In this document: positions 2,549 through 57,743 of the stretch, one piece after another
How positions within the stretch are numbered: the first letter of the stretch is position 1
How the letters are laid out: the number at the start of each line of letters is the position of its first letter
The notes under the pieces: model-generated
What the model was told of the DNA's origin: nothing
The model's input: only the letters and a program-made list of their open reading frames with translations
Database searches by the model: none
Position numbers and translations under genes: made by a program
Origin: a virus
IMG/VR virus record: IMGVR_UViG_3300045988_092720
Strand: one strand, 5' to 3'
DNA: 64,000 nt

Positions 2549-2555
2549 ACAAAAA

Positions 2556-2581: not shown

Positions 2582-2590
2582 TGTCCATTT

Positions 2591-17543: not shown

Positions 17544-17815
17544 TTTATCACCGCATAAGATGCTCCATGCGTTCCCCTAATATCAATACGCTCAATATAT
17601 CCTAGGTCAGAAAGAATTTTAACGCCTCGCCAAGCAGTCATACGACCAAAACCAATACCCTCTGCAATTTCTGGCATGGTTAATTTGATGAATTTTTTGC
17701 CAGCTAAATCGTATCCATCTTCTTCTGCACGTCGTTTAATATACCCATGAACCAATGCTACTGTGATATTAAGCTCATGTAATATTTTTAAATCAACAAC
17801 AACACTATCAATCAT
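17540..17815 (-). CDS. winged helix-turn-helix DNA-binding regulator
   Basis: LTMPEIAEGIGFGRMTAWRGVKILSDLGYIER, a HTH pattern. Confidence 0.45.
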   Translation of the reverse strand: MIDSVVVDLKILHELNITVALVHGYIKRRAEEDGYDLAGKKFIKLTMPEIAEGIGFGRMTAWRGVKILSDLGYIERIDIRGTHGASYAVIK

Positions 17816-18569: not shown

Positions 18570-18598
18570 AGTCTACCACCCCCTGCTCAGGCTGTCAA
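18570..18598 (-). promoter_or_regulatory. promoter-like TTGACAGC-17-TAGACT inside the 3' end of the polymerase gene
   Basis: Shares the extended -35 TTGACAGC and upstream GTCAGC element with 8255 and 23619; weaker -10. Confidence 0.35.
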
Positions 18599-21505
18599 GC
18601 GGTCGAGCTGACAAGCGTCGGTGATGACCCCTTTGCTAATTCGTAGTGCGTGTACCGTTCCCTTAGTCAGCTTAGTAAAATCAACATCAAAGGTTACTAA
18701 CTTTTCCACGCCTGAATTCGTCTGTGCGGTAATAAAAGCATAAGGTTTACCGTGTTTAGTTTTACGTGCAGTTACAGAAAGTATGATAGCAGGCACAACA
18801 TTACCCACACATATACTTGTATCGTATTCATCAAAAATACTATTGAATGTGTATCCTAATGCTTTTAACTCCATAGCACCTTTGCTCAGATTATCTTTAG
18901 AATTAGCATCAAATTTATATTCACCTTTAGATTTACGTTTATCCTTTAGCCATTGTACATATTGAATATAGTCATTCCTATCATCGCCATCGTCAATTGC
19001 ACCACTATAAATTAAACCTTTTAATTGAGTTAAATTCATAGATGCATTCTTTTCTAAGAATTCTTTACCACGTGCACATTCATATGATTTAAGATTGCTA
19101 CATCCTGCAATTGCTCCAAGACCTAAACATACTGTATTCTTAGCAGTAGTACAGTGCTTATCTCCATATATATCAGGAGGTATAACTTTAATATTATTCT
19201 GTTTAGCATTATCTATAAATACTGATAGTTTTTCTTTGTCTCCAAAGTTGTTATCAAATATAGATGCATAAAATAACTCTGGATAATGTGCTTTTAAATA
19301 TGCACATCGCCAAGCAGTTAAACCATATGCGGCACTATGCCCTCTGTTAAATACATAGGAACCACAAGCAATCATTTGGTCAGCAATAGGTCTTACCACA
19401 TCTTCTGTATATCCATGTTCACTAGCACGCTTAACAAATTCGTCTACGGCTTGATTAATTTTATCTAACTCTTTACGACCGATAATGCGTCTCATAATAT
19501 CAGCTTCACCCATTGAATAGCCAGCTAATGTACGTACAATCTGCATAATTTGTTCTTGATATAAAATAACACCCTCAGTATCTTTTAAAATCGGTTCTAA
19601 TACAGGGTGTAAATATGTTACAGGCTCTTTGCCTTGTCTTCGTGCTATAAATACCTTGTCCATACCAACATCTAATACGCCAGGTCTTCCTATAGCTACA
19701 GTATCAACTAAATCATATACGCTCTTAGAATGGATACTCTTAACAATATTTGTCATTACGTCTGACTCAATTTGGAAAATACCAATGGTATTGCCACTCT
19801 GTAACAATTCTGCTGTCACTTTATCTTCTAACGGTATACTATGTATATCAAAATCACCAATACGATTAACTGTATTTTCAATAATATCTAATGTAGCTAA
19901 ACCTAGAATATCTAATTTAAGGATACCTTGCTTTTCTAAAATATGGAAATCTTCAGCCGCTACATACTGACCGTCTTGATACTCTATTGCACACCATTGA
20001 GCAGGGTCGCTAGGGAATACTGCAACTGCACTAGCATGAGTACTATAGTTTTCTAAGCGATTTAACATACTTTCTGCCATTTTCTTTAACTTAGCATCTT
20101 TAACTTCACTAATATCGTTGATGTTTTTAGATACTTTAGTTACATCAGATGGTTTCATATTTAATGCCCTACCAGCTTTTTGTACTGCTGCTTTGTCAGA
20201 TAAGAAGCCAAATGTTCTTACTGGATACGCATGGGTGTACTTTTCTTGAATATATTGAATAACTTCTTGTCTACGAGACTGTTGAAAATCACAATCTATA
20301 TCACAAGGGGTTACACGTTCTGGGTTTGTAAATCGTTCAAATACGAGATTGTATTGTAATGGGTCAATTTCTGTAATACCCATTAAATAAGCGACTAAAC
20401 TACCACAAACAGAACCACGACCTGCACCAGTAAGCATTCCTTTAGACTTAGCCCATTGTAACATATCATGAATGATACAAAAATAGTTATTATAATCAAC
20501 TTGAGTTAATACTTCAAGTTCATGTTTAACTTGTTTTGCATATTCATCTTTGTTAGGTTTTTTAGCAATACCTAGCTTTTTATATCCATCCCTACAATGG
20601 TCTAATACATATTTTGCAGGGTCTTTTACTGGGAATACAGGATAATGATTTTGACCAAATTCAATTTCTACATTACACTTATCAATAATATTACTAACAT
20701 TATCATAGTATTTTTGTTCTGGATAAATAGCCTTAAATTCATCTACAGTCCACATATGATAATCTCTACTACCATAATATGTTGACATATGATTATATTG
20801 CTCTTGATATTTTTGTTCTTCTTTATCGGAACTAGAATTATCTATCCTATATTGTATTTCTGCTAAATCTGCATCTAATAATAAGAAATCTCTATGCGAT
20901 TGCATTTGTTCGGGATACGCATAATGACTATCACCTGTAATAATAATAGGTACATTATATTTATCGCCAAGCTCCATAACTACTTTATTGTATTCCCATT
21001 GCAAAGGAAAATCATGAGGTTGTATTTCTAAATAAAAATCATCACCAAATGTATCTAACATACGTTGTATAAATTCGTCTCTAAGTAATTCATTTGATAA
21101 TGGACCAGCAACACAAGCAGTACTAACAATAATATCTTCATGGTATTCTCTTAATGCTTTATAATCAATTAATGGTTTATAATAGTGATGGTATGCACCA
21201 TATGTAGATAGCCTACGTAAGTTGTATAAACCTTCTGTTGATTTTGCTAACAATACCAAGTGATAACTTTCTCTAGTTTTTACATCTAAATCATATGAAA
21301 AATAGGCTTCCATACCAAGTATTGGTTTAATACCTGCATTTTGACAAGCAATATAATGTGATGTTAAACCAGATGTAGTACCGTGGTCTGTTAACGATAC
21401 GGCTGAATATCCTATTTCTTTAGCACGTTGTATACGCTCTTCTAAAGATGAATAAGCATCACGCCTACTATAAAAACTATGGCTATGTAAATCTGTAAAA
21501 TTCAT
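18587..21505 (-). CDS. DNA polymerase III alpha-like replicative polymerase with N-terminal PHP domain
   Basis: PHP motifs LHSHSFYS, SLTDHG, GMEAY; palm-like PCDIDCDF matching the PDIDxDF catalytic motif; 972 aa. Confidence 0.75.
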   Translation of the reverse strand: MNFTDLHSHSFYSRRDAYSSLEERIQRAKEIGYSAVSLTDHGTTSGLTSHYIACQNAGIKPILGMEAYFSYDLDVKTRESYHLVLLAKSTEGLYNLRRLSTYGAYHHYYKPLIDYKALREYHEDIIVSTACVAGPLSNELLRDEFIQRMLDTFGDDFYLEIQPHDFPLQWEYNKVVMELGDKYNVPIIITGDSHYAYPEQMQSHRDFLLLDADLAEIQYRIDNSSSDKEEQKYQEQYNHMSTYYGSRDYHMWTVDEFKAIYPEQKYYDNVSNIIDKCNVEIEFGQNHYPVFPVKDPAKYVLDHCRDGYKKLGIAKKPNKDEYAKQVKHELEVLTQVDYNNYFCIIHDMLQWAKSKGMLTGAGRGSVCGSLVAYLMGITEIDPLQYNLVFERFTNPERVTPCDIDCDFQQSRRQEVIQYIQEKYTHAYPVRTFGFLSDKAAVQKAGRALNMKPSDVTKVSKNINDISEVKDAKLKKMAESMLNRLENYSTHASAVAVFPSDPAQWCAIEYQDGQYVAAEDFHILEKQGILKLDILGLATLDIIENTVNRIGDFDIHSIPLEDKVTAELLQSGNTIGIFQIESDVMTNIVKSIHSKSVYDLVDTVAIGRPGVLDVGMDKVFIARRQGKEPVTYLHPVLEPILKDTEGVILYQEQIMQIVRTLAGYSMGEADIMRRIIGRKELDKINQAVDEFVKRASEHGYTEDVVRPIADQMIACGSYVFNRGHSAAYGLTAWRCAYLKAHYPELFYASIFDNNFGDKEKLSVFIDNAKQNNIKVIPPDIYGDKHCTTAKNTVCLGLGAIAGCSNLKSYECARGKEFLEKNASMNLTQLKGLIYSGAIDDGDDRNDYIQYVQWLKDKRKSKGEYKFDANSKDNLSKGAMELKALGYTFNSIFDEYDTSICVGNVVPAIILSVTARKTKHGKPYAFITAQTNSGVEKLVTFDVDFTKLTKGTVHALRISKGVITDACQLDRLTA

Positions 21506-22071
21506 ATTTTTACCTCATATCTTTTTGATTGACAATATTTATCAATTAATTGAGAAATAATATGGTCGTTCATTTTTTGCCTACTTTCATTTAATACATT
21601 TTTGATTATCAAAGCTCTATATTTTGGTATTACACTACCAACTTTATATGTTTCAGTAATTGTAGTTGGTTGTACTATATTAAATGAACTATAAAAATCA
21701 ATTTGTTCTGTTGAGCTGTTGCTTGTTAGTACCATAGGTATTCTTTGTTCATAACAAGAAAAACCATCTAATAATTCATGAATTTTCATTCTTACAACAA
21801 TTAAATCGTTACCTGCATTTTCGTATTGTATATTAACTAATTCGATACCAGCTCTTGATATAAATCCATCCGCTGACAATTCATGAACAAGTAATTGATT
21901 TAATGGCACTTGATTAAGAGGAGTTTCAATAATTAAATAGTCTTTGTTCCACGTGTTTATATAATATGCATTATCATTATTACTTACTGCACTAGCAAAT
22001 GACGATAGAGTTACTTTTAATATATCCTCATCATATGTATTTATTGGTTCAAATATTCTATATCTACTCAT
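21502..22071 (-). CDS. hypothetical protein (189 aa)
   Basis: ORF overlapping the polymerase start by 4 nt. Confidence 0.45.
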   Translation of the reverse strand: MSRYRIFEPINTYDEDILKVTLSSFASAVSNNDNAYYINTWNKDYLIIETPLNQVPLNQLLVHELSADGFISRAGIELVNIQYENAGNDLIVVRMKIHELLDGFSCYEQRIPMVLTSNSSTEQIDFYSSFNIVQPTTITETYKVGSVIPKYRALIIKNVLNESRQKMNDHIISQLIDKYCQSKRYEVKI

Positions 22072-22080
22072 ATTATCTCC

Positions 22081-22272
22081 TTATAAATCTGCGTAATCAT
22101 CTTCCATATATGCTAATATTAAACTTAATTCTTCATTAGATATAGTTTCTAAACTATCACCAGTTTTACAATCATCAATATAATATGCTAACCAACTCTG
22201 ATTACCTAAACTATGATGATAACTTTCAATTAATTTAATTTGATTTTCTCGCAATATATCTTGTGTTTGCAT
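22081..22272 (-). CDS. hypothetical protein (63 aa)
   Basis: ORF. Confidence 0.35.
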   Translation of the reverse strand: MQTQDILRENQIKLIESYHHSLGNQSWLAYYIDDCKTGDSLETISNEELSLILAYMEDDYADL

Positions 22273-22290
22273 TATTTATCCTTACTTTCA

Positions 22291-22455
22291 TTATAATACC
22301 TTCTCTAAATATTCAATATCTCTCATCCAATTGTCACGTTCAGCACACAGTCGTTTATTTGTTTCTTTCAGTTGTTTAATTAACTTTTCATTTTGCTTAA
22401 TTAAAGCATTAGTAATTGCAATATTTTCTCTAGTTTTTTCTTTTGTTTGATACAT
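22291..22455 (-). CDS. hypothetical small protein (54 aa)
   Basis: ATGGAGG RBS then ATG 22455, directly downstream of a consensus promoter; not in track. Confidence 0.4.
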   Translation of the reverse strand: MYQTKEKTRENIAITNALIKQNEKLIKQLKETNKRLCAERDNWMRDIEYLEKVL

Positions 22456-22476
22456 TTTTCTACCTCCATTTACTGC

Positions 22477-22505
22477 ATTATATCATACCTAAATAAATTT
22501 GTCAA
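22477..22505 (-). promoter_or_regulatory. consensus sigma70 promoter TTGACA-17-TATAAT
   Basis: Minus-sense TTGACAaatttatttaggtatgaTATAAT, about 20 nt before the RBS of the 54-aa ORF. Confidence 0.6.
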
Positions 22506-22506
22506 A

Positions 22507-22532
22507 TAAAAAAGGACCCCATAAAGGGGTCT
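22507..22532 (-). terminator. intrinsic terminator ending the late/lysis transcript
   Basis: Minus-sense GACCCC-tttat-GGGGTC followed by TTTTTTATTT. Confidence 0.6.
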
Positions 22533-23368
22533 ACTAAGTGTAACGTATTACGAAGTGTAATTCAATATTACGCTGAGTAATGTTATTCTTCTTTGTTTTA
22601 TATACTAAGTTGTAGTAATGTTATTACGTTCTAAGTGGTAGCGTTATAAATACCTAAAATACTGATACTGTAGAACCGCTACGCTAGGTGAAATACTCAC
22701 ATCGTTAGTTGCTGTAGTTGTAGATAATACCAAGAAGGAATATCTTTGTTCGTATTTTCTTTTTCTTATGTGTATTACCAACTAATCAATATCTGAACGC
22801 TAGTGAAGATATTCTGCGAACGCACCAGTTATGAATACCAAGTAACTGTATCACTTATTGGTAGTAATGTTGAGCATCTACTCTATATCTGTTACTACGC
22901 ACTTCGTTTGTAACTACTTCGTAGTTGATTGTAGTATATATTAATTAGTGAATATCTACTGTATTCTCTACTCGATGATTGCCCCAGTTAGTGCCGAGGT
23001 ATTGCCCCAATATACATGGGAGCGTATATACTTGTTTGGTATATAATCGAAACTTCATAGTTAATACTAAGGTAGCCCAGGTGTAGCTTTACCTACCACT
23101 CAAAAGAGTTTGTTTCGACTGCCATCTACGACGGGACAAAATCTGGGAAAATTGCACGCCAAACAGCCCCTGTCTCACAGCCATATTACCGAGTTGCTAA
23201 TTCGGTTCCGTTATTTTCAGTTGGTTTACGTTCTCAACACTATTCCGATATGATGTTTTATAAACATATTTAGTCAATACTCTGGATATACATGAGACTG
23301 CATGAACTTTCAAGGTTTGCCTATCTCCGTGCAATATGTATATTAGCAACCAGATATACTGAGTTGTG

Positions 23369-24437: not shown

Positions 24438-24879
24438 TCAAATCCCAACGCATATCAGGGTCATCATCATAGATAGAATACCCGTCAATAATTGCCCAGT
24501 CATTGTGTGTTTTAAAATGTTCTTTATCAATTTCCCAACCTTTAGCATCAGCAATGGTTTTAACAATCATAGCCATTTTATTAACTTGTGCATCAGTTGG
24601 TGGAACAGTTCCCCATCTAACATTTCCTTCTGTATCTACGCTTGCATCTGCACAGCAAAGAATAGATACACCAATATTACCTGTATTACGATGCCATGTA
24701 TGTTTACCAGTAGCATCAAAACTGTTAAAATCAGACCATACACGCCCATCACCTAAAATATTTAAGTGGTAGTAAGGGGAGGTATTTTCATACCCCCCAC
24801 CACTCCAATGTAAGGTTACTTGGTCGGCATGGCAATTAGCTGCTAAATAAGCAATATCATTTAGAGTATAAAAAGCCAT
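24346..24879 (-). CDS. N-acetylmuramoyl-L-alanine amidase (amidase_2/PGRP, T7-lysozyme-like) endolysin
   Basis: LHWSGGG...TWHRNTGNIGVSILC...IDKEHFKTHND pattern of Zn amidase_2; no cell-wall-binding domain. Confidence 0.6.
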   Translation of the reverse strand: MAFYTLNDIAYLAANCHADQVTLHWSGGGYENTSPYYHLNILGDGRVWSDFNSFDATGKHTWHRNTGNIGVSILCCADASVDTEGNVRWGTVPPTDAQVNKMAMIVKTIADAKGWEIDKEHFKTHNDWAIIDGYSIYDDDPDMRWDLIALPQEDGDGGAIIRGKAIWYHYHPEECKD

Positions 24880-27800
24880 TATTCCTCCTCAATACCGTCA
24901 TATAAACCATCAACAAATGTGTTATAAACATTAGCTTGTTCCTTGACCTTATCAGCCTCCACGGAAGATTTTTTAGGTAAGTATTTATTAGCCTTGTCAA
25001 TCGCAGACATTTGTTTCAATTCTCTTGCATCTCTAAGCTGTTTGCCAGTTACACCAAAGTCTTTAATACGTTGTTTGTTTTCTGGAGATGGGTCACGCAA
25101 GAAGTCATTAATAGCTTCTTTCTTCCCATCTTTAAGCTCTTGATTTGCCATAGTAAGTCTATAAGCTAAATCATTTTCTATAGACTCACGAACAGGTCTG
25201 AAACCTAACAATTTCATAAAACGCTCTTCAGATGTATATGCACCTTTATTTTCAGCATTTTTCCAGTCACGCATATTACCAGTGTATGCTTGATAGAAGT
25301 TGCCAAGTTGTGGAGATAACGCATGACTTACGCCTGTTACTACATCTCGCCAATCATGACTATTCCTAGCCACATCGCCAAGAGCACCATACGTAGATAA
25401 TGTAGGACCTAGTAATTCGCTACCACTACTAGGTGTTAAATCACCAAAGCCAACATTTCGGCTAAAGTCAACTCCAAACATAGATGGTGCACCCATAATA
25501 GCCATCATCGCTATACGTTGTTTAGTTTGGTCTTTACCAGCCCAATCATACAACACATCTTTTGTTCTATCTGTTAAGCCTTTACCTGTTAGCCATTTTA
25601 ACATATCATCGCCAGCACTCATGAATGGTAACCCCATAAAGCCAGCCATACCCATTGTAATACCAATAAAGCGACTTAATCCTTTATAGTCAATGGAGCC
25701 ATCAGGACCTTTGAATGCTGTAAATAAGAACTCAGCTTCCTTAACACCGAACTTCTTAAATTGCAAGATAGTTTTACCTAGTGTACCAAACTTAGTAAAT
25801 AACTGTGGAGAGTCAATATCTGTATAGTCAAAGTTTGTTTTAACTACGAAATCTTTGGCATATTCCATAGCCTTTTTATAAGCCTCTGGATTTTTAGTGT
25901 GTAAATCAGTAGTGTCTAAACCGTGTTTAGCAGCGTATTCTTCGTATGCGTGAATAGCAGCAACCTTACGAGTATAAGCATCGGCTTTCATAAAGCCTTT
26001 CATAGAAAGGTCAAATAATTTACCGAATTTAACTCCACCGATTGTAATTCTGCGATAATCTCCACTATCTAAGAATTCAGATGCTTGGCTTGCACTTTCT
26101 TCATACACTTCTAAATCATCAAATAATTGACCATATTTACCGTTTTTGCCACTCTTACCAGCTTGTTGCATAGCGTATTTTAATTGTGGCGTAAAGCCTG
26201 TTAAAGCTGCTACGTTAGCTAAAGTACCAAACTGTGCGATAGCGGCAGTAGGTCTAAATACACCTAATTTGAATACAGCCATAGCTTGCATATTACGGTT
26301 AAGAAGTGTTGTTACCCAATTATCACCCATATGTTTTGTCATATAGGCACCGATAAATGGAATTTCACGACCGATAGTATTTAATACCTTATCAGTATTA
26401 TTTGGTGCACCTATTACACGTTGAATATAGTTATGGACAATATCTTGTCGTGCGTTTTTAGCACCTGTACCATTACGACCGTATTGTTTTTCATAATTCT
26501 CACCATATACTTGTTCATAGTAACGTGTAGCAAAATCTAAGAATGGAGCATTGCCTTGATACTTCGCTTGTGTATTTGCATAATGGTAAATCGCTTTAAT
26601 ATGGTCTTCATTATGACCAAGCACGCCAGCACGTTTAAGATTATGCTTATTCCACATTTGAGCACCAGAACTACGGTATAAATATGCACTAACATTATCG
26701 TGTGTTAATACGCCATCTTTATCTTTCTTTAAGAGCTTTTCAAAGTTAGCCATACCAGCTTCTTTTTGTAGTTTTTTATAATCTAAACCAAGCTCTTTCA
26801 TACGTTCTTTGTTGTTAATTAGGTTTTGGAAATCATCATAAGTCATTGACTTATCTTTACCTTTTAGGAAGTGGTCAATGAATTTCTTAGTTTCTGTATA
26901 ATTACCTTGTACACGATTGAATAATGCTGCGGCATCCTCATCAGACATACGCTCATATACCTTATGTAATTCAGCTTCTTCATCTGTTAAGTTCGAATAG
27001 TAACCATCATAAGATTTAGATGCATCTGCTTGATATCTTTCTCTACGAATAGTCATGTAACCAACACCTTTTTCAACAGGTCTTGAGTCTACATATTTAT
27101 TCGCATCAGCTTCTGTATCAAAAGAAGTTAGTACCGTATACTGAGGGTAATATCTACCAGTTTCTGGGCTATACTTAACTTCCATTTTGTAAACACCATA
27201 ACGCTTATGCTCACGTGGAATATAGCCCCATAAGTCAGCAGATGGGTCCTTACCTCGTGATACTTGGTTGTCATTTACGTCTTTATGGATTTGGTTAAGT
27301 ACTTGGCGAATACCAACATATTTATCCCACAACCTTTCACTATAGCCTAAGTGTTTAGCATACGCTTTAGACATTTCCATTGCCACCTTGTTTGCATTAG
27401 CTTTATCTTTGTAGGAAGGGATATTTTCCTTACTAGAGATTACTTGGTATACATCCTTATTAACGCCAATATAAACATGATTACCTTTTTCTCTTTCAGC
27501 TTTTACAAACTTACGCATACGCTTATCGTCAGCTAAACCAAATTCCGTGAATGTATCTTCTGGTTTGATAATGGCGTATTTTAATTCACCGTTTAAATTA
27601 ACTGCTACTGGTTGAGCAAATTCACGACCACGTTTATCTACTTCACCTAATAGCTCATTCATTTTTTTATCTTCACCATTTTTTACATCCAAATCTGCAA
27701 ACTGTTTATCAAGCAGTTGCACATATTCAGTTTTCTTGCGACGATATGTGCGAGCGGCTACATATGCCTCTTTAATGATTGGCTTTAATTCTGGGATTAA

Positions 27801-30800
27801 TTTACGTGCCATAGATGATGGAGATTGTAACATTTTACGGAACCATGCAAAAGATATACCGTCTTCTGATGGATTGATACGCTCAATAATACCACCGCCA
27901 TTTTCCATAATGTCAGCAAGTAATTTTTGTTCAGCTTGGTCAATTCTGTCATTCTTTCTAATTGAATAATCAGTATCTTGCTTAATTTTTGCCAAAACTT
28001 TTGCGATAGGGGCTTCAGGTGTTGTAGTAGCACGATTACGTTGGTGTAATGTATCTAGTTTTTGTACACGTTTTCTATCCGCTAAAGCATCTTGGAAATG
28101 CTCTCTAATTTGTTGTTCACTAAAGATATTTGTATTACCATATGAGAACATTTCATTAATAAACGAATAATATTTTTGGTCTAGTTGTGGATTATTACCA
28201 AGTTTTGGTACCACCATAGCAGCTAAGAATAATTTATCTTTAGTGTCCATAGGGCTATTGATAATAGCTTGTGGTACATCTAAAAAGTCATGTGCGTTTT
28301 GGTTAGCCTGAGCTAGACCCATAATTAATTTTAAGCTGTTTGTGTCGCTTTCTGGATTGTTGATGCTTTGAATAAATTGTCTAATTCTTGTTCGTTGTTG
28401 AGATTTTCCAGCGAGTGCATCAAGGTTTTTACGTCCAAATTTTCCTTGATGTGAAACTGTTCCATCTTCACTTTGATTAGAGCCATCTTTACGTACAACT
28501 CCGAATGCTCTTTTAAGATTTTTAGAGGCACGTTGTATAACATCTTCAACAGACTGTGGGTCGTTTTCGCTGACAGATGCAAGTATTTTACCGTTGCCAA
28601 CTGCTCTGTATATTTCGCCTGCAAGTCCTTCATCTTTTTCAAGCTCCTCTCTCATTAAGTCTAATGTATCATTTACTACATTTTTTAAGTCAGCTGTCTT
28701 AGTAAAGTCAGTTGCACTATGTAATAATTCATGTACAAATGTGTCATTTGTTGGTGTAATATTATCACTTGTGATATATAATCGACCAGTAGATGGCATA
28801 TATGCACCATTAAATTTCAACCCTAATGGGTCATTATTTACTAATCTATCAGCTACATAAATCTCTAAATTAGGATGTGTACGAATATAATTTAATATAG
28901 TTACATACGCTTGTTGGTCGCCATTAACTACGTGCATAATAGATTTTAAGATATTACGCATTTCTCCATTTGTAAGTTTACCTAACCCTTTGGAACGGTC
29001 TGCAACCTTTTTCATGATACCCATTTCAATTTCACTAGGTTCATGGAACTTAGCATTTTTGCTATTAGATACTTTCTTGTCGCCTGTTACAGACATTTGA
29101 ATGTCATTAGTTGGCACAATTGTATATGTATCATCATTAATAATAACTTCATAGCCTAAACGAGAAGTAAGGTCTTTGTGAGATTTAAGGTAATTTTTAC
29201 CATTTTGGTCTAGTAAATCAGCATCAATAACAATGCCTTTGTTTTGACGAGCAACTTCCGCTAGTGCATGGAATGCATAGTCAGCAACTTCACTACCGTT
29301 GTTAAATAACGCTGATGGTACATATTCCGCATTAACTATAATTTTACCATCTTTAATTTCACTATCAATAATATCATTCATGGTGATAACACCCATATCA
29401 TATAAGTAACCATCTAATACTTCTTTAAAGTCGTCAGGGTCAATAAATTCTGGCACTTTAATTTCTACTGGGAATTCTTCACCTAGTTTGATATCCATTT
29501 TAATATCTGTGGTATAGATATCACCTTGATAGTTAGGAATAGATGCATGTAAAACTCCGTCTTTATAAGCACTCAATCGTAAAGCCGTAGACACTTGATT
29601 TTTTGTCTTTTTGTCTTTTAATTTTTCTTCTGTGATTTTAGAGTTTTTGCTAATGCGGTCATCCATAACCTCTGTAACAACGTCTTTGATTTCACTATAT
29701 ACACGTTTAGCTAATGGAGAATTAATATTATGTAGACGTGGTGCACCATTTGGGAATAGTTTCTTGGCACCTACTCTGCCAGCCATTGATTTATATTTGT
29801 TCTCATTACCAATAGCAGGATAAAGATGTACTGCACGATTGACTAATCTACCTAGCAAATGGTCGCCATTTGGATTGTCAAGTTCTTCCATCAACTTATC
29901 CATGCCAATAGCTTTAACACGTGTCAAACCTTTTTGAAGTGCGTTAAGAATGATAAAATTACGCATTCTATCATATCGACTAGCTTGCGTAACATCTGAA
30001 ATATTATAATCTTTGTCGAACCATAAACGAATATTTTCATCAAAATGACTAGGGCTATTCAAGAAAGCATTCAATACAACTTGAGGTATTTTTACTTCAC
30101 CACGATTAACAGCTTCCATTAACTCACGTTGAGATGGGATTTTATAATCAGGTACATTATTGAGAATACCCTTCCAAGCTGGAGCATACATTGGTTCTTT
30201 ACGCATTAATTGATTACGCTTAGCAATAATACCGTTGAGTATTTTACGGTATTCAGACTTGGAAATAAATGGATGACTATGTAAATATTGAATAGCATCG
30301 GCAATACTATTAATAATATCCATATGTTTTTCCATAACCGCTTGTTCATCTTTAATATTATCACTAATGTCGATATCACCAGTATCTTCGTTCGCTTGAT
30401 GTTTCAAATATTCTCTGAATGCCTGTTTCTCTTTTTTACCTTTATCCGTTTCCATTTGCAAGTCATCAACCATTTTTAATGCATCGACTTCGTTGATTTG
30501 TCCGCCACTTTGGATTTGAGATTTTAATTCAGCTAATTTTTCAACGTCTCGCATTACAGCTTTTTGGTCGTCAGTGACCATGTCAACAGTTCTAGGACCC
30601 CTAGGTCTAGTTTGTTTTTTAGGTTTTGGTTGGGCTGGATTTAAGCCTAGTCGTTCTTCATATGGAGTAACAATAGGTTCTTCGCCTGTAGGATTGTCAT
30701 GTTCGATAGTTTCTGTGTGGTCTTTTTTAACTGGTCTTGCTTCCCATTTTTTATTTGGGTTTGGTACAATAACATTATACGGACCAATATTACCACCAAG

Positions 30801-33260
30801 CACATCATTATTTGCATTTCTATATTTTAGAGCCTCTTTAGTGAGTGGCATTTTCATGCCAGTTTCACGACCAGTATGAGATAGATATTGCTGTATTTTC
30901 AATAAACCATCACGTGTTACTCTATCACTATTTAGATAATCGGCAATCATTTGGTCATCACCAGCGATATTACGGTCAGATGTTGCTAATTGTGTGTTAT
31001 TAACAACTTTTTCTGGCGTGCCATTCGGACGTACTGCAACTTGTGAGTTTTTTCTACGTGTTTCTTCTGCACTACGTTTAGCTTCATCAATGTTAGCTTG
31101 TAACATTCTGCGTTCGTTAGTAGTTAAGATTTTACGTACGTTATCAAATTGAGGTCCAGTAACATCAATACCATTTGCACCTAAAGTAATAAGTGTATCT
31201 TTGATTTTACTAGCAAGAGCGTGTTTTGCTGGTAAATAATTTGCATCATCTTTTGGAGGAAGTGTATTAATTACTTCTTCCATTTTTTCAGCAACATCAC
31301 GGTTTTCGATATAGCTTTTAGCACTGTCCTGTGTACGCTCTGTATTATCCATGTGTTTAACATAGTTTGTAATACGACCAAGCTCTTCATTTGTATAGCC
31401 ATTTCTTGATTTAATACCAGCTTTAGCTAAATAGTTACGTGGGTTTTTGGCTTGTTCATTGCGTCGAATATCAGAGCTATTAGCATCACGTTTACGTGCT
31501 TGCATTGCATTATGTACACGATACGCTGCATCTCTTGCTTTGATTGGGTTATCTTTATATTCATGCTCAAAGTATGTTTTATTTGGAGAATTCTCATATC
31601 GTTCATTATGATATGCATTTCTACGTTCATTAATAGCATCAAGCTGAGCTTGGAAAGCATTCTGCTTTTCTCTTTCTTGAATTCTATTTGTAATATCACG
31701 CACAGATGTTTGGTCAGGGTTTTCACGTTCAAGGTTAGAGCGTTCTGCTTCTGTTAATTCAATACCAAGTCTATCAGCTTTTTCAGCAAGAGTTTCTTCT
31801 TGTGGTTGCTCCTGAACAGATGGTTCTTCTACTACTTCATTAGAACGTGTCATATCTTCATATAAACTACGAGAAAGTAAATTTGCTTCTTTGTTGGTAA
31901 AACCTAAATTAGCAAAGTTCTCAGCAAACATACGAGGAGATAAATCTTCAGCAGTTTTATCACCATGCAAGCCCATAATATTAGCACGCTCATCTTGTAC
32001 AGCTTCCATTGCTGCCGCATAGTCTTCTGGTGCTTTTTTATTCAATACTTGGTTTACAGAATTAGCGAAAGAACTTTCTTCCATCATTGGGGAATATGAA
32101 GCGTTAGAAATATCATCAACCTCTGTATTACCAAGAGGTGTATTATCAATAAATGTAGGTTCTTCAGCAACGATATCGCCTAAACCATCGTTTTGAACTA
32201 TAGGTCCTGCACTATCAGCAATAACATCTTCAGTTGATGTTAAGCCAGCCATTTCGTCAGCTTTATTTATGATTTTATTAGAAGCACCACGAACAGCACC
32301 ACCTACACCGCCTACAGCCATGGAGATGTTAAATGCGTCCTGTGCTGCCATATTCATATCATTGGTCCATGTAGATGGGTCTAACATAGATACTTGGTCA
32401 TAGCCCTCTTGACCTTTAATACGACCTTCAATAGCTTGTTGCCATGCTTCTGTATAGCCTTCTACTGCACTGTTAGCTGCATTACTAAGTAAACCTTTAA
32501 CCATTAGTTTACCGCCGTCTTTAGCAAATGCACTAGCTAACATGCCAACCTTACCAGATACACCGATACGGTCAGCTGCATAATCTAACATTGCAGGTCC
32601 CCAACCCTCACTCATAGATTGTCTAAAAGCATCACCTGCTACATCTGTGCCATACCCTGCATTACGATAATCATTGTAAATAGAGCCAGCATTTTGTACG
32701 TTCTCAAGACCAGAACCTACTGCAAGTTCTGTACCGTATTTAGCTACTTTACTTAAACCAGTAGCAACAGAGCCAGCTAATCCCTCAGATACGCCAGCTC
32801 TTGCTAATAAACCACCAATTTTACCTGCGTTTAAAATACCAGCAGTAGTACCGCCTGTAGACATAGCCATAGCTACTTGCGGAACGACATTACCGACAAA
32901 TTGACCACCTTGAGCCGCCCAATAGTGAGGATTTGTAACTTTATCTCCCCATGATAAATCAGCAGTATCTGGGATTGTACTTCTGTAAGCTGCTAGATTA
33001 GAATAGTAATTAGCTTCGTTTTCAGTTTTCCCACGTAGCCATTGTGCTGTATCGCTGTCAGATAGGGATAATCCATAAGATACCGCACCTAACATATCAG
33101 AACCTAAGCGGTCTAAACCAGCACTAAAGTTACCTACAAATTCATCAGCAATGCCATCATAATGTGCCTTGCCCATATAATCATATCCAAGAGTAGCAAG
33201 GTTATTACGATACTGGGCATCAGCATTTCTACTGGCTAACCCGTCTGTCCAATTTGCCAT
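24879..33260 (-). CDS. giant virion protein (2793 aa), either tape-measure-like or an ejected internal protein, with HEXXH motif
   Basis: 8.4-kb uninterrupted ORF; Gly/Ala-rich N-terminus; VHELLHSATDF (HEXXH at 28719-28733); Gly/Met-rich hydrophobic C-terminal segments; sits between the tail-lysozyme gene and the endolysin. Confidence 0.6.
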   Translation of the reverse strand: MANWTDGLASRNADAQYRNNLATLGYDYMGKAHYDGIADEFVGNFSAGLDRLGSDMLGAVSYGLSLSDSDTAQWLRGKTENEANYYSNLAAYRSTIPDTADLSWGDKVTNPHYWAAQGGQFVGNVVPQVAMAMSTGGTTAGILNAGKIGGLLARAGVSEGLAGSVATGLSKVAKYGTELAVGSGLENVQNAGSIYNDYRNAGYGTDVAGDAFRQSMSEGWGPAMLDYAADRIGVSGKVGMLASAFAKDGGKLMVKGLLSNAANSAVEGYTEAWQQAIEGRIKGQEGYDQVSMLDPSTWTNDMNMAAQDAFNISMAVGGVGGAVRGASNKIINKADEMAGLTSTEDVIADSAGPIVQNDGLGDIVAEEPTFIDNTPLGNTEVDDISNASYSPMMEESSFANSVNQVLNKKAPEDYAAAMEAVQDERANIMGLHGDKTAEDLSPRMFAENFANLGFTNKEANLLSRSLYEDMTRSNEVVEEPSVQEQPQEETLAEKADRLGIELTEAERSNLERENPDQTSVRDITNRIQEREKQNAFQAQLDAINERRNAYHNERYENSPNKTYFEHEYKDNPIKARDAAYRVHNAMQARKRDANSSDIRRNEQAKNPRNYLAKAGIKSRNGYTNEELGRITNYVKHMDNTERTQDSAKSYIENRDVAEKMEEVINTLPPKDDANYLPAKHALASKIKDTLITLGANGIDVTGPQFDNVRKILTTNERRMLQANIDEAKRSAEETRRKNSQVAVRPNGTPEKVVNNTQLATSDRNIAGDDQMIADYLNSDRVTRDGLLKIQQYLSHTGRETGMKMPLTKEALKYRNANNDVLGGNIGPYNVIVPNPNKKWEARPVKKDHTETIEHDNPTGEEPIVTPYEERLGLNPAQPKPKKQTRPRGPRTVDMVTDDQKAVMRDVEKLAELKSQIQSGGQINEVDALKMVDDLQMETDKGKKEKQAFREYLKHQANEDTGDIDISDNIKDEQAVMEKHMDIINSIADAIQYLHSHPFISKSEYRKILNGIIAKRNQLMRKEPMYAPAWKGILNNVPDYKIPSQRELMEAVNRGEVKIPQVVLNAFLNSPSHFDENIRLWFDKDYNISDVTQASRYDRMRNFIILNALQKGLTRVKAIGMDKLMEELDNPNGDHLLGRLVNRAVHLYPAIGNENKYKSMAGRVGAKKLFPNGAPRLHNINSPLAKRVYSEIKDVVTEVMDDRISKNSKITEEKLKDKKTKNQVSTALRLSAYKDGVLHASIPNYQGDIYTTDIKMDIKLGEEFPVEIKVPEFIDPDDFKEVLDGYLYDMGVITMNDIIDSEIKDGKIIVNAEYVPSALFNNGSEVADYAFHALAEVARQNKGIVIDADLLDQNGKNYLKSHKDLTSRLGYEVIINDDTYTIVPTNDIQMSVTGDKKVSNSKNAKFHEPSEIEMGIMKKVADRSKGLGKLTNGEMRNILKSIMHVVNGDQQAYVTILNYIRTHPNLEIYVADRLVNNDPLGLKFNGAYMPSTGRLYITSDNITPTNDTFVHELLHSATDFTKTADLKNVVNDTLDLMREELEKDEGLAGEIYRAVGNGKILASVSENDPQSVEDVIQRASKNLKRAFGVVRKDGSNQSEDGTVSHQGKFGRKNLDALAGKSQQRTRIRQFIQSINNPESDTNSLKLIMGLAQANQNAHDFLDVPQAIINSPMDTKDKLFLAAMVVPKLGNNPQLDQKYYSFINEMFSYGNTNIFSEQQIREHFQDALADRKRVQKLDTLHQRNRATTTPEAPIAKVLAKIKQDTDYSIRKNDRIDQAEQKLLADIMENGGGIIERINPSEDGISFAWFRKMLQSPSSMARKLIPELKPIIKEAYVAARTYRRKKTEYVQLLDKQFADLDVKNGEDKKMNELLGEVDKRGREFAQPVAVNLNGELKYAIIKPEDTFTEFGLADDKRMRKFVKAEREKGNHVYIGVNKDVYQVISSKENIPSYKDKANANKVAMEMSKAYAKHLGYSERLWDKYVGIRQVLNQIHKDVNDNQVSRGKDPSADLWGYIPREHKRYGVYKMEVKYSPETGRYYPQYTVLTSFDTEADANKYVDSRPVEKGVGYMTIRRERYQADASKSYDGYYSNLTDEEAELHKVYERMSDEDAAALFNRVQGNYTETKKFIDHFLKGKDKSMTYDDFQNLINNKERMKELGLDYKKLQKEAGMANFEKLLKKDKDGVLTHDNVSAYLYRSSGAQMWNKHNLKRAGVLGHNEDHIKAIYHYANTQAKYQGNAPFLDFATRYYEQVYGENYEKQYGRNGTGAKNARQDIVHNYIQRVIGAPNNTDKVLNTIGREIPFIGAYMTKHMGDNWVTTLLNRNMQAMAVFKLGVFRPTAAIAQFGTLANVAALTGFTPQLKYAMQQAGKSGKNGKYGQLFDDLEVYEESASQASEFLDSGDYRRITIGGVKFGKLFDLSMKGFMKADAYTRKVAAIHAYEEYAAKHGLDTTDLHTKNPEAYKKAMEYAKDFVVKTNFDYTDIDSPQLFTKFGTLGKTILQFKKFGVKEAEFLFTAFKGPDGSIDYKGLSRFIGITMGMAGFMGLPFMSAGDDMLKWLTGKGLTDRTKDVLYDWAGKDQTKQRIAMMAIMGAPSMFGVDFSRNVGFGDLTPSSGSELLGPTLSTYGALGDVARNSHDWRDVVTGVSHALSPQLGNFYQAYTGNMRDWKNAENKGAYTSEERFMKLLGFRPVRESIENDLAYRLTMANQELKDGKKEAINDFLRDPSPENKQRIKDFGVTGKQLRDARELKQMSAIDKANKYLPKKSSVEADKVKEQANVYNTFVDGLYDGIEEE

Positions 33261-53701: not shown

Positions 53702-55138
53702 TTACATTGCACCTCCCATCGGTATGTCAGCAGTATTAACTGTTCCAAATGTTCCTACAGGTGGACTAGCAATAGCTGAAATGTGTGCTAAACTGTCAAT
53801 TAAATCGTCATGTAAAGATTTAGGGAACGATAAAAACTCGCTCTCAAGTTCTACTAAGAAGTCTTTGCCCATAGGGAACCACAATGTGCCAGCCTTAAAG
53901 CGTGGTTGCAATGCGGCAATACGAATTTCTTTCTTCTCCTTAGCCTCTAATGGCTTAACTGTGAACCAAGTATTACGAGCAATCATTTCTTTCTCCACAA
54001 AATGAATTAAAGCCGCCTGATAAGCGACCTTTTCAATACCAACAAAGATTGGTCGGTATTTTTGTACCATTCTAAAGATGGTGTCAATTGTTTTCGTTGG
54101 GTCCCATCGTCCATAATCAATTTCTAATAGGAACCAATGGTTTTCTGGATTTACGGCAACAGCACAGACAGATGTAAAGTCAGCTGTTTCCTTTTCAGAA
54201 ATAGCTAAATCGCAAGCGATAAAGATAGAACAATCTTCGATATTCAATACGTTAGGGTCATAATAGCGGAAGTATTCTTTTTTGAAGATTTGGCTTTCAG
54301 GAGAGATAGCAATACATAGTTTCTCACGTTCCCAAATATCTAACTGACCAAGTTTACGCCACTTTTCTCGTTCATCATTAATCGCTTCTACTGGATACAT
54401 CTCTTCCCAGTTAGATTGACCATCTTCATTTAATACAGGAATACGCTCAGCATCAAAACCTAATTCCTCTTTGTTGGATATTACCTGTTCAATAATACAC
54501 TTTTCACCAAGATTATTACCGATGAAGAATATCCGTGTGTTCTTGCCAAGGAAATACACATCAGATAAGAACCATTGATAGTCAGATTTTTGCACTGTAT
54601 CAGATAAACTATCTTCCAAGTCTTGAGGGTCATCTATGAGGATAATATCAGGTCGTCTATCCTTGTTATTCAAACCACGGACACTAGAACCCTTACCATA
54701 CGCTTCCATACGCACAGTGATTTCTTCACCGTTTTTATCCTTCACCACAATTTCAAATGCCTTCTCAGACTGTTCTTTAATACGAACAAGATTAAGGTTC
54801 ATTAATTCATTACTGGTGTATTCTTCTGCAATATCTTTAAGCCTTCGGCTGGCTGCCCGTTGGTTAGCCATGATAAATACGATGTATTGCTTCTTCTTGG
54901 ATGGAAATACCAAACAGTGAATTGGGAAAGCTCTTAATACGTACGACGTTTTCGCACTCTCACGGAAGCCCTCTACCGCATAATGTCTATCTCCGTTTAG
55001 TAATACCTCTCCCCATTTACGGTGAAACCAAGCAGGCTTTACTTCGTTCTCCGCTGGAAGAAACATCTGCCTAAATAATACCAAGTCATTCTCACATCTA
55101 TCGTAAATCTCAGCTAATTGTTCAATCTCTTTCGACAT
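53702..55138 (-). CDS. terL: terminase large subunit (478 aa)
   Basis: Walker-A-like EGFRESAKTSY; C-terminal nuclease-like acidic residues; AAAGGAGAG RBS; first gene of the late operon. Confidence 0.6.
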   Translation of the reverse strand: MSKEIEQLAEIYDRCENDLVLFRQMFLPAENEVKPAWFHRKWGEVLLNGDRHYAVEGFRESAKTSYVLRAFPIHCLVFPSKKKQYIVFIMANQRAASRRLKDIAEEYTSNELMNLNLVRIKEQSEKAFEIVVKDKNGEEITVRMEAYGKGSSVRGLNNKDRRPDIILIDDPQDLEDSLSDTVQKSDYQWFLSDVYFLGKNTRIFFIGNNLGEKCIIEQVISNKEELGFDAERIPVLNEDGQSNWEEMYPVEAINDEREKWRKLGQLDIWEREKLCIAISPESQIFKKEYFRYYDPNVLNIEDCSIFIACDLAISEKETADFTSVCAVAVNPENHWFLLEIDYGRWDPTKTIDTIFRMVQKYRPIFVGIEKVAYQAALIHFVEKEMIARNTWFTVKPLEAKEKKEIRIAALQPRFKAGTLWFPMGKDFLVELESEFLSFPKSLHDDLIDSLAHISAIASPPVGTFGTVNTADIPMGGAM

Positions 55139-55319
55139 TACATCTCTCCTTTCTTACCCTTTCATTACTTTCTCCTAAAAATACAATTTTGTAGCGTATT
55201 TGTTACTCTACAGATAATTACAGAAAGAAAATACTCTACGTTTCTGCTTTCGTAATACCACTCTGAAGTGTATCCCTGAGAAAGCTGATACGTATTTTTT
55301 CTGACGAGTATTACAATAC

Positions 55320-55386
55320 GAGGAAGAAAAAAGAAAAAGAAAAGAAAGAAATATATAAAGAAAGAAAAGACAAAGAAAAAAGACTA
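55320..55386. repeat. polypurine (AG) tract of about 65 nt
   Basis: aggaagaaaaaagaaaaagaaaagaaagaaa...agaaagaaaagacaaagaaaaaagac. Confidence 0.8.
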
Positions 55387-55916
55387 GTAAACCACACTAT
55401 ACATAGTTTGCCATTTTTTGGTACTTACGATACCCCAACCCACCATTTCAACCGTATTACAATATCCACCTGTCAATTAAAAATAGCGTCCATTTTCGTA
55501 TTCTGGGGAGATACAATTACTTCATGTTACATTCATTTATAGTACTACCCTTTTTAGAAGCCCCACCCCTTTGGATTTTTGTATAAGCATGATTTCAGAA
55601 GTCTTTGAATTTTTGTATAAGCAGTCTCTATTTTCTATGTCCAGCCCCCACGCCCCGAATGCGAAGCCCCACCCCCTGAAGTGTGGAAGAGAAAGAGCAA
55701 ACAGATGTACGATAGAAAGGGCAAAATTCACAGTATTACAACGCACTATATAAAGTGGGGGGGTAATGTCGGAAAACACGGGGTAAATACAACGCATTAC
55801 ACTATATGATTGGATATGTGGCATAGTTTAGTCAAGGCAACTGACTAAGGGTTGCAGGATACACAAACAAGTATCCAGTTATATTACTTGCCCTCAAGGG
55901 CGGAAAGAGGTCTAAA

Positions 55917-56345
55917 ATGGCTAAAACTACAACAACAAATATCGTAACTGATTTCAAGGCTTTGCTTGAAAAAGCTCACAAACTATCTGAGGGCGAACGC
56001 TTGCCAATGGTAGAGCGTAAATATCAAGCTGTAACAGATACAAAAAATCTAACTGTATCCGTAACACTTGAATTGCCACTCAGTGAAGTAATGAAATCCG
56101 CAAAGGGCTCTAATTACATTGTCCCTATGGGCAATGTAAAAGGTGCTAGAGGCTCAAATGTGATTGAGGCTCACACTGAGGATGGGCTTATTATCAAATT
56201 ATACGCTGATAGAGCCTATATTTCAAGCGAAGCTCAAGAAAAAGAAAAAGCAGTGAAAAACGCTACTAATTCTGAAAAAGAGCTATTAAAAGAGCAAAAT
56301 AAAATGCTCATGGCTCTATTAGCTAAAAATGGTATTGAATTATAA
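55917..56345 (+). CDS. hypothetical protein (142 aa), monocistronic
   Basis: ORF followed immediately by a strong intrinsic terminator. Confidence 0.5.
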   Translation: MAKTTTTNIVTDFKALLEKAHKLSEGERLPMVERKYQAVTDTKNLTVSVTLELPLSEVMKSAKGSNYIVPMGNVKGARGSNVIEAHTEDGLIIKLYADRAYISSEAQEKEKAVKNATNSEKELLKEQNKMLMALLAKNGIEL

Positions 56346-56352
56346 TCCTAGG

Positions 56353-56385
56353 AGGGTAGTCTATTAAGGCTACCCTTTTTTTTTA
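56353..56385 (+). terminator. intrinsic terminator
   Basis: AGGGTAG-loop-CTACCCT hairpin followed by T9. Confidence 0.65.
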
Positions 56386-56902
56386 TTTTATATTTTAATT
56401 GTATACAATTATGTTTTATACTGTTATATTGGTATTATGGTAAATTTGATACAATGGAATTTTATATTATTCTTTTCCCCGCAAGTCAATTGTGTACAAT
56501 TGAATTGTATACTATTTTCTGGTGTTTTTTATGATGTTTAAAATCGAACATATGTTTATATACATTGTATAAAATTGAATTGTGTATAATGTAGCCTGCA
56601 ATCGAACACATTGTATGGAATTGTATTTTATGCAATTGAGTTTTATACTATTATCTTTTATAGAAATTGTATTTCATACAATTTGATTTTATTCTATTAT
56701 ATCTTATACTGTATTATCTTATATTGTTTATATTTTATAAAATGGAATTTGATACTTTTATTTTCCCCGCAACCGTATTGTATGCAATTGAATTGTATTC
56801 GATTATATTGTATTGTGTATCATCATACCCAATTAATTGTATGCAATCTTATTTTGTATTATTCAATCGTGATTATTGCTAGTTGTATAAAATTATATTT
56901 GA
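56386..56902. repeat. ORF-free iteron block (TTGTATNCAATT palindromes; two roughly 60-bp direct repeats)
   Basis: Copies such as aattgtatacaatt, gtgtacaattgaattgtatac, tgtatgcaattgaattgtat; long direct repeat aatggaattt..ttttccccgcaa..attgt.t.caattgaattgtat at about 56451 and about 56738. Confidence 0.7.
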
Positions 56903-56936
56903 GGCTATCCTATTGTGTAGGGTAGCCTTTTTTTTT
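56903..56936 (+). terminator. intrinsic terminator related to 56353..56385
   Basis: GGCTATCCTA-ttgtg-TAGGGTAGCC hairpin followed by T9. Confidence 0.6.
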
Positions 56937-57082
56937 ATGTCAAATTTTATTGTGTACAATTTAATCGTGTAATTTAAAACGCTTTATTTGCCCTGTACGG
57001 CGTTTTTATATGTTCCATGATAGATTATACCTAAAAATAGTTAGATAGGGCTTACAGCTTAAATAAATGAATTCTAGGGCTA

Positions 57083-57111
57083 TTGACAAAATTATATATA
57101 TGTGGTATTTT
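57083..57111 (+). promoter_or_regulatory. possible + strand promoter TTGACA-17-TGgTATTTT
   Basis: TTGACAaaattatatatatgtggTATTTT. Confidence 0.3.
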
Positions 57112-57467
57112 ATTATATTTACATTTAATAGAGAATACAATTCAATTTGATACAATTTAATTGATAGTAGAATAATCACGCACTATATATTTTTTATATA
57201 TTATATTTGATGCAATTTAATTTCACGCATACGTATTATATAAAATATAATTTGATGTAGCATCGAACATACGTTTGCTTTGGGTGGTTGGCTGGCTTGC
57301 TCCGTCGTCCGTCAGTTCGCATAGTTGCTGGGTTTTCAACCGATGGCTCGGAAATGTGGGATAGTCAGGTTGTCCCAACGGACAGCACCACGTTGGGTTG
57401 AGTACCTCGGTACTTCGTAGATTGGTGCGTAGTTCGCCAGAAATAAGAGGCGAGAAAGGGGTTCATT

Positions 57468-57743
57468 ATGAACATCGAAAAACAAATACAAGTGTCTTGG
57501 AAAGCCGCTATAGCGATATTATTAGGAAAAGCTGGTATTTATGACGCCAACTTAGATTACGTGCATCTTTCTGATGCAGAGGGTTTCCCAGAAGATTACG
57601 GTTGGATTGAATATCGTAGTATAGAGGGACCTGTAATTTATACTTCTACACCATTTTGTTTTATGGCTTATAAAAATAATGTAGCTCGTGCTAAAAAAGT
57701 TGGTATGAGAAAAATTATTCGTGCATACGAAGTATGTCGATAG
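57468..57743 (+). CDS. hypothetical protein (91 aa)
   Basis: AAAGGGG RBS; first ORF after a GC-rich structured leader. Confidence 0.45.
   Translation: MNIEKQIQVSWKAAIAILLGKAGIYDANLDYVHLSDAEGFPEDYGWIEYRSIEGPVIYTSTPFCFMAYKNNVARAKKVGMRKIIRAYEVCR

Follow-up and report, generated by a model that had tools for sequence, protein, structure and literature searches.

What purpose is served by an AT-rich, repeat-filled block of DNA that lies between two transcriptional terminators and encodes no credible protein? Such a block is found in a 64-kb stretch (the window, i.e. the whole of the DNA analysed here) of a 67,094-bp phage genome, IMG/VR record IMGVR_UViG_3300045988_092720. Our analysis places it at the core of a 2.3-kb non-coding control hub (55139–57467), between a leftward late and replication operon and the rightward early genes; a scaffold in ENA (ERZ28658550 scaffold_156, L045) is 100% identical across this hub and both window ends. 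The hub is most likely a non-coding origin or control region of a familiar kind, in a phage family that has not been described. As between origin, packaging and regulatory functions, it is only tentatively, at less than an even chance, that we read the block as a cis-acting hub for replication origin and early control, built like the transcription-primed origin (ori) of Lactococcus phage c2.

The block is bracketed by two intrinsic terminators on the + strand, T1 (56350–56385; −17.7 kcal/mol, z −5.0) and T2 (56901–56936; −18.6 kcal/mol, z −6.1), each consisting of a 13-pair stem and T9. Both are kept in 15/15 close relatives, i.e. IMG/VR sequences whose large terminase subunit (TerL) is at least 94% identical. 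In each, a GC-containing hairpin is directly followed by a U-tract on the transcribed strand, as is required of a rho-independent terminator, and the arms of T2 are those of T1 in swapped order (GGGTAGnC/GnCTACCC versus GGCTAnCC/GGnTAGCC). The terminator scan and folding thus agree with the preliminary description of this DNA, which had reported two + strand terminators with variant stems and nine Ts apiece. It was also right to call the intervening block free of open reading frames (ORFs): those present are composition-driven (34–104 aa) and lack a ribosome-binding site, and the longest varies among the 15 relatives in size (45–91 aa) and position. The GC minimum of the window falls here (22.2% over 56376–56875), and the block is the window's sole non-coding tandem array.

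The repeat is a degenerate 15-bp direct unit, approximately AATTGnATTkTATAC, which holds a single orientation and is itself composed of 5-bp sub-units (ATTGn). Autocorrelation of the block gave a strong signal at lag 15 (z = 9.8) with harmonics at 30/31 and 45, and Tandem Repeats Finder returned a period of 15 in six segments together with a 46-nt period at 56619–56708. Units match at 67–88%, show a 5-bp sub-period and number ~35–50, contiguously, in the whole array; WTTGWRT half-sites in 55139–57467 are spaced by 5, 10 and 15 and favour the + strand (24 versus 11 on the − strand). Part A of the array (56392–56900, +; 22–24% GC) comprises ~34 units laid out in register. The preliminary description had confined the block to the space between the terminators; instead, the array continues beyond T2 as far as about 57225, with the main early promoter, P2, inside it (see below). 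This second stretch, part B (56937–57225, +), contains more 15-bp units, of the TTGATRCAATTTAAT type, on both sides of P2 (lag-15 z 4.4; repeat families D5 to D7), with period 15 detected at 56943–56971 and 57135–57166.

Two smaller motifs reported earlier turn out to be facets of the same array. Many copies of a palindromic core had been described, and their clustering is indeed tight: with up to two mismatches TTGTATRCAATT has 57 matches in the 64 kb, 28 of them within 56397–57217 (<1 expected there), and all but one of the matches with at most one mismatch fall in that interval. However, only two copies are exact (56399 and 56778), and the palindrome, TTGTATACAA, is secondary to the direct repeat, arising because the end of one unit (GTATAC) abuts the start of the next (AATTG). 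Likewise, a second motif said to recur downstream is present as RCAATTTAAT, three times in the window and always within 56956–57221, but this count is not significant (1.6 expected), and the copies are additional units of the 15-bp array.

The repeats had been taken for iterons, an identification that did not survive. A classical iteron-type origin fails on repeat length (15 bp), on repeat quality and on number, the array having ~35–50 degenerate units instead of a few well-kept copies of 17–22 bp; the AT-rich unwinding region that such an origin needs is present, the window's lowest GC content being here (22% over 500 bp). The search for a Rep-type initiator was negative: a Pfam scan of 54 small ORFs contained no Rep family, returning only a sub-threshold HTH_11/HTH_24 match at 17540–17815, a weak winged-helix protein whose gene adjoins the helicase gene, and neither integrase, ParA/B, sigma factor nor Rep protein was found in the window or in the 3 kb lying outside it. 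We also discarded a repeat RNA of the type III antitoxin kind (ToxI or pseudo-ToxI), for which near-identical tandem repeats of ~34–45 nt running from promoter to terminator are expected; the block has a single 46-nt period, in two copies at 84%, and otherwise degenerate 15-mers.

To identify transcription signals, sigma-70-type promoters were scored on an alignment of the window with the 15 relatives (16 sequences), which left only three conserved sites: P1, P2 and a weaker P3 (57147–57176). A dense cluster of ordinary sigma-70 promoters was rejected, as the 21 sites found compare with 14 ± 4.5 expected and only these three are conserved in relatives. P1 is an extended −10 promoter-like TGaTACAAT (56447–56455, +) that passes the promoter score in 11/16 sequences; its TTTGATACAATGGAATTTTAT is invariant in 15/16 aligned sequences, the remaining one having TGATACAAT, and a P1-like TATTTGATAC box is found again in the distant relatives L034 and L047. 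P2 (TTGACA-17-TGgTATTTT; 57083–57111, +) is a strong host-type early promoter conserved in 15/16 sequences, and its TATTGACA box is present also in L034, L037 and L047. The two lie ~650 nt apart on the same strand, with no conserved ORF or ribosome-binding site in between.

P1 is carried by the first of two 95-nt direct repeats (family D4; 56441–56535 and 56729–56823, both +; 77% identical), a real pair that had been noticed earlier but whose length had been put at roughly 60 bp. Besides P1, copy 1 contains TTTTCCCCGC (56473–56482) and a weak internal terminator, t1′ (56480–56530, +), predicted by folding as a CGCnAG...CUGGUG stem and then U6; copy 2 contains a −10-like TAAAAT (56738–56743; TACAAT in most relatives) and a second TTTTCCCCGC. 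The TTTTCCCCGC element stands ~21 nt past the −10 element in both copies, an arrangement shared by the distant L034 and L036. Judged from these positions, t1′ would end a ~70-nt transcript started at P1, and a transcript from copy 2 would reach T2 after about 190 nt. In two relatives (L002 and L008) the t1′ segment has been exchanged, at the same spot, for an unrelated and better hairpin (CACGAT-TTA-ATCGTG plus a T-run), which argues that termination itself is under selection; this swap is the best evidence for a predicted short transcript ending at t1′. Conserved P1 and the replaced terminator are positive evidence for short transcription units in the block. The preliminary description had offered, as alternatives, binding-site arrays of an origin or of a repressor or partition site, or a terminated non-coding RNA; it is partly supported, in that the evidence fits the first and last of these in combination.

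Could the transcripts themselves be the functional product? Trans-acting small RNAs, P1–t1′ (~70 nt) and P1′–T2 (~190 nt), each with a 5′ U-rich CCCCGC stretch, might act on host or phage mRNAs or proteins, in which case the repeats would be incidental. The conserved promoter and terminators, the retention of termination through non-homologous replacement and the fixed place of TTTTCCCCGC in the window, L034 and L036 would all suit such RNAs, as would the folding of the + strand (−122.7 kcal/mol, z −5.1), which is far better than that of the − strand (−78.7 kcal/mol, z −2.5). We nevertheless hold this explanation to be unlikely. Seed pairing was rejected, since the CCCCGC region has no complementary target anywhere in the window, and hairpin covariation within the block was not convincing, inverted repeats being often broken in relatives with a single compensatory case (L001). 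An Rfam search of 55100–57600 gave no family match, either at gathering thresholds or up to an E-value of 10, beyond chance-level terminator look-alikes, the RNA sequence is not conserved outside the clade, and the 15-bp units beyond T2 would be left unexplained.

Those units, flanking P2 on both sides, raise the alternative that the array is an operator, in which the 15-bp units bind a phage or host protein that coats the DNA and switches early P2/P3 off or late transcription on, with no role in replication; the p6/p4 nucleoprotein complexes of phi29 provide a model. Repeat families that are lineage-specific, as expected from co-evolution with a protein, would be in keeping with this, as would two LexA-box-like palindromes in the hub, through which host regulators may act. 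However, the majority of the units lie upstream of T2 and are unable to affect P2 directly, ~830 bp of sites is excessive for a single promoter, and only one weak helix-turn-helix protein was found. We regard a purely operator function as unlikely.

The two palindromes resemble the Gram-positive LexA (Cheo) box, with the consensus CGAAC-N4-GTTCG. Box 1, CGAACATATGTTTA (56545–56558, +), agrees at 12/14 positions, and its GAACATATGTTTA is kept in all 15 relatives with a single substitution in L006 (GAACGTATGTTTA). Box 2, CGAACATACGTTTG (57264–57277), follows a promoter-like TTCACG-18-TATAAT, the two spanning 57222–57277 (+); it is kept in all relatives, agrees at 13/14 Cheo positions here and is perfect (14/14, CGAACATACGTTCG) in three relatives. 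The Cheo pattern with at most one mismatch occurs seven times in the window versus three expected, distant lineages carry GAAT or AAAC half-sites in its place, and the bases of Box 2 pair as well in the predicted fold of the leader (see below); both boxes are putative LexA sites only. Box 2 stands just 3′ of a promoter-like site before the early operon, in a phage for which no integrase was found, and early expression may couple to the SOS response.

Carried further, this would give an episomal phage that does not integrate and responds to SOS, for which the hub would provide both maintenance and the switch: the array would act as a plasmid-like origin or centromere, and host LexA, bound to the two Cheo-like boxes, would keep the early operon silent until DNA damage. 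Host LexA acts in this way for Bacillus phage GIL01, and a relative within a 247-kb contig of a Veillonella isolate would fit episomal persistence. If true, this would let a lytic-looking phage without an integrase persist in Veillonella, but we judge it very unlikely.

How much of this is maintained by selection? Conservation of the repeats in related phages, on which the preliminary description had made its proposal depend, is observed: T1 and T2, the units, the pair of 95-nt copies, P1 and P2, and the two boxes are all present in the 15 relatives. Block length nevertheless ranges from 489 to 676 nt, and a 45-nt three-unit module (GAATTGTATTTTATACAATTyAATnGTAAACnnnAGTTTACyAT) differs in position between relatives, which shows that units have been gained and lost as the array evolved. 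Mean pairwise identity is 0.79 for the block versus 0.78 for third codon positions of the terminase gene, so conservation within the clade is by itself no proof of selection. These same observations (variable length among near-identical phages, a shifting module, and identity no higher than at terminase synonymous sites) would be expected if the block were a largely non-functional AT-rich satellite, in which slippage-prone repeats have piled up where only a few promoters and terminators are needed. We consider this quite improbable, as the units hold one orientation, and lineages as distant as 52% TerL identity still have ORF-free repeats at this position although space is otherwise tight in these phage genomes.

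The more distant lineages (52–71% TerL identity: L034, L036, L037, L039, L041, L042 and the Veillonella contig L047) are the more informative comparison. In every one, ~0.8–1.2 kb of ORF-free, AT-rich DNA separates an ORF142-like gene and its terminator from the early promoter, but the repeats are not the same, having periods of 9 bp in L034, 10 bp in L042, 18 bp in L041, 17/34 bp in L037 (z 17) and 29/6 bp in L039. Lineage-specific arrays thus occupy the same place in 5/6 further lineages, L036 being AT-rich and ORF-free without strong periodicity, and the P1-like box, TTTTCCCCGC, GGCGTTTTT and TATTGACA persist in some of them.

It is this combination of fixed position and variable sequence, together with easy melting, untranslated units between early promoters and insulation by terminators, that led us to rank a transcription-assisted origin with a protein array first. 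Under such a scheme, host RNA polymerase would start at P1 and at its paralogue near 56740, in the easiest DNA of the genome to melt, and short untranslated transcripts would be made, with T1 barring transcription from outside and t1′ and T2 halting what starts inside the block. The strand opening that transcription causes, or an RNA–DNA hybrid that persists, might then provide an entry point for the phage's primase-helicase (15224–17203) and DnaE-type polymerase (18587–21505). A phage protein specific to the lineage would bind the 15-bp units and organise the replication complex; as units also flank P2, it could modulate early transcription as well. In favour of this reading, the hub lies where the two blocks of transcription part and at the minimum of cumulative GC skew, and the phage supplies its own primase-helicase, DnaE-type polymerase, SSB and Erf.

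Several observations weigh against an origin of this sort. The skew minimum is confounded with gene orientation. All functional claims rest on analogy, each step being inferred from better-known phages, and only the sequence features, their statistics and their conservation are observed directly. The Pfam scan detected no Rep or initiator family among the 54 small ORFs, the units are very degenerate and far outnumber classical iterons, and the block is no better conserved than third codon positions of the terminase gene. DnaA-box-like sites are weakly enriched (5 in a 1-kb bin versus 1.5 per kb overall), but with one perfect box and the rest by-products of the ATTGTGTA unit, a DnaA-box cluster was rejected. 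The block is 35–50 kb away from the replication genes, and a second AT-rich gap (22013–22512, 24.8% GC) lies directly beside them; an origin may lie far from its initiator gene, as SPP1 oriR does. Finally, the c2 ori itself has neither a tandem array nor a canonical terminator.

The remaining explanation concerns genome ends, and it draws on what surrounds the block. Orthologous genes in relatives assign the portal and capsid to the SU10 type; TerL shares ~25% identity with the terminases of N4 and Alteromonas AD45, and the portal shares ~29% with its LUZ24 counterpart. In phages with a structural module of the SU10/phiEco32–LUZ24–N4 type, the physical end and terminal repeat lie 1.9–2.3 kb upstream of the TerL start (phiEco32, TerL at 2240–3781 of the linear record; LUZ24, 184-bp repeat 1.9 kb upstream; N4, TerL at 66674–68044 of 70153), a distance that maps to 57040–57380 here. 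The virion DNA termini, as a direct terminal repeat, might accordingly be in or beside the hub, and the array might be a site of terminase recognition or processing at the concatemer junction, or a region at the leading end where DNA entry pauses; the short-repeat arrays beside the T7 terminal repeat and the injection-stop region of T5 are models. The array is the sole non-coding repeat array of the genome and is lineage-specific, and hypervariable first early genes lie just downstream, as expected at a leading end. Locating the ends via contig break points was unsuccessful, as these are scattered among relatives and termini are not readable from assembled contigs. Moreover, packaging does not explain the conserved promoter–terminator units in the block, and the genes between end and TerL in the reference phages are co-directional with TerL, whereas ORF142 is opposite. 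Overall, we view a packaging role as unlikely, if the best of the rival explanations.

The left border of the hub is ORF142 (55917–56345, +), a monocistronic gene of unassigned function whose end is at T1. It has no Pfam or PHROG match, and homologues were found only in this phage group, in which its amino-acid identity is 36–76% among the close relatives (TerL at least 94% identical); an AlphaFold model from 18 homologues was unusable (pLDDT 43) and was not used. At the right border, a conserved GC-rich leader (57261–57467, +; 51% GC) precedes the first early ORF. Its consensus fold has 39 pairs, six with compensatory changes, with 95.5% of cells paired and a covariation score of 0.200, versus 0.142 when shuffled and 0.03–0.08 with partners slid, suggesting that it is probably a structured 5′ untranslated region; its covariance model found nothing credible in lineages outside the clade, and no Rfam family matched. 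Homology among relatives ends exactly at the first early start codon, and the ORF that begins there (57468–57743, +) is swapped for unrelated genes in relatives. These patterns suggest that the hub is flanked on either side by host-interaction genes, ORF142 and the first early ORF, which evolve fast or are exchanged.

The intergenic region between TerL and ORF142 contains further signals. A C-rich motif, GAAGCCCCACCCC, occurs twice (55557–55569 and 55663–55676, +), recurs in the corresponding intergenic region of the distant lineages L034, L036, L037 and L047, and could be a late-promoter or genome-end signal. There is also a 60-nt polypurine (AAGA-type) tract (55324–55383, +), near which two copies of ATTTTTGTATAAGCA lie 34 bp apart (55575–55624). 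Just 5′ of ORF142, an extended −10 promoter-like TGGCATAGT followed by TAGTCAAGG (55819–55840, +) is probably the promoter of this gene; the TATAGT...AGTCAAGG arrangement upstream of ORF142 is seen also in L034 and L036.

Outside the hub, the − strand block (2203–55138) comprises the large terminase gene, followed by portal, capsid and tail genes, a 2793-aa ORF and then the replication genes, which include a DnaE-type polymerase, Erf, a primase-helicase, an exonuclease, ribonucleotide reductase and thymidylate synthase; the phage also encodes its own SSB. Small + strand genes run from 55917 onwards, the early ones from 57468. Searches of Pfam, PHROG and PDB gave no match for the 2793-aa ORF (24879–33260, −) of the virion block, which also lacks RNA-polymerase motifs. 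Many TerL homologues (P0001, P0013–P0022 and others) are 785–824 aa long and contain Hom_end/LAGLIDADG domains (PF05204, PF14528), a sign that terminases of sister lineages carry an inserted intein or homing endonuclease. A full-length EGFOA RNA (RF02955; 73.4 bits; 23046–23152, −) lies within the 1.7 kb that separate the replication block from the structural one, which places one copy in a complete phage genome. RNAs of the EGFOA family form trimers and strand-exchanged dimers, according to a 2026 preprint (10.64898/2026.07.01.735769).

DNA searches in near and distant modes found no match to known phages. A relative with 64% TerL identity lies within a 247-kb contig of the isolate Veillonella sp. 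VA139 (L047, NZ_RQVL01000001.1, 16911–30245) and shows the same hub architecture; other relatives are inside 208-kb and 237-kb metagenome contigs. The three contigs hint at the host and at possible persistence in cells, though no integrase was found. The host of the present phage is probably Veillonella, a conclusion drawn from the relative in the isolate contig, strong Shine–Dalgarno sites, TTGACA/TGn promoters and an Amidase_2 domain protein, the latter probably an endolysin.

Phages often have AT-rich repeats between their early and late operons, and such regions usually prove to be origins, packaging sites or control regions, so the kind of element is unsurprising. The interest of this hub is that it is the single obvious cis-acting region in an undescribed and apparently widespread family of ~60–68-kb podophage-like viruses with SU10-type portal and capsid, seen in human metagenome assemblies and one Veillonella isolate genome. 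Its architecture is clear, a strong early promoter of the host type and a structured leader accompanying insulating terminators and short units of non-coding transcription, and its repeat sequence is exchanged lineage by lineage while its position stays fixed. It is a good place to seek the origin, the genome ends and the early switch, and is a candidate replicon fragment for Veillonella genetics.

How does the hub compare with known systems? It resembles the terminal-repeat phages (phiEco32/SU10, LUZ24 and N4) in lying ~2 kb upstream of TerL and LUZ24 in having sigma-70-type promoters that point outward from the end region, but no 15-bp array has been reported there or in T7, and DNA searches found no similarity. 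The middle and late promoters of phiEco32 have AATGTA centred at −11.5 and are read by the phage sigma factor gp36 (PMC12276001). AATTGTAT superficially resembles this motif, and the structural modules are distantly related; however, we rejected phage-sigma promoters of this type, as no sigma-like protein was found and the motif does not lie upstream of middle or late genes, its only intergenic copies outside 56346–57300 being three on the − strand (55188 and 55518, upstream of TerL, and 2118). Hairpin promoters for a virion RNA polymerase in the style of N4, considered because TerL resembles that of N4, were likewise rejected, the 2793-aa protein having no PDB, Pfam or PHROG match, DFDxD or T7-type motif B.

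With iteron origins (lambda ori, P1 oriR, SPP1 oriL/oriR and theta plasmids) the hub shares direct repeats of one orientation in or beside the most AT-rich DNA. It differs from them in that classical iterons are 4–9 well-conserved 17–22-bp copies in helical register, whereas the units here are degenerate, contiguous and numerous, and no Rep, O or G38P-like initiator was recognised in this phage.

The closest parallel is the ori of the Ceduovirus phages, which sits in the non-coding DNA that separates early from late genes, is flanked by the first two early promoters, PE1 and PE2, on one strand, and is untranslated, with neither an ORF nor a ribosome-binding site; its non-coding transcript is thought to prime replication, and three types (c2, bIL67 and 923) are known that have no mutual sequence similarity (PMC7150918). 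The hub similarly lies between divergent modules, with TerL on the − strand up to 55138 and early + strand genes from 57468, and similarly presents lineage-specific sequence types at a fixed genomic position. The likeness is partial as regards transcription: P1 and P2 match the consensus and are conserved, with no conserved ORF between them, and the transcript is predicted. In contrast to the hub, with its ~35–50 15-bp units and two strong bracketing terminators, the 611-bp c2 region has no tandem array or canonical intrinsic terminator, and the two belong to unrelated phage families with unrelated replication proteins and no sequence similarity. The resemblance is therefore one of functional analogy and not of family membership: in both, a lineage-specific, untranslated region holds a fixed place between early and late genes.

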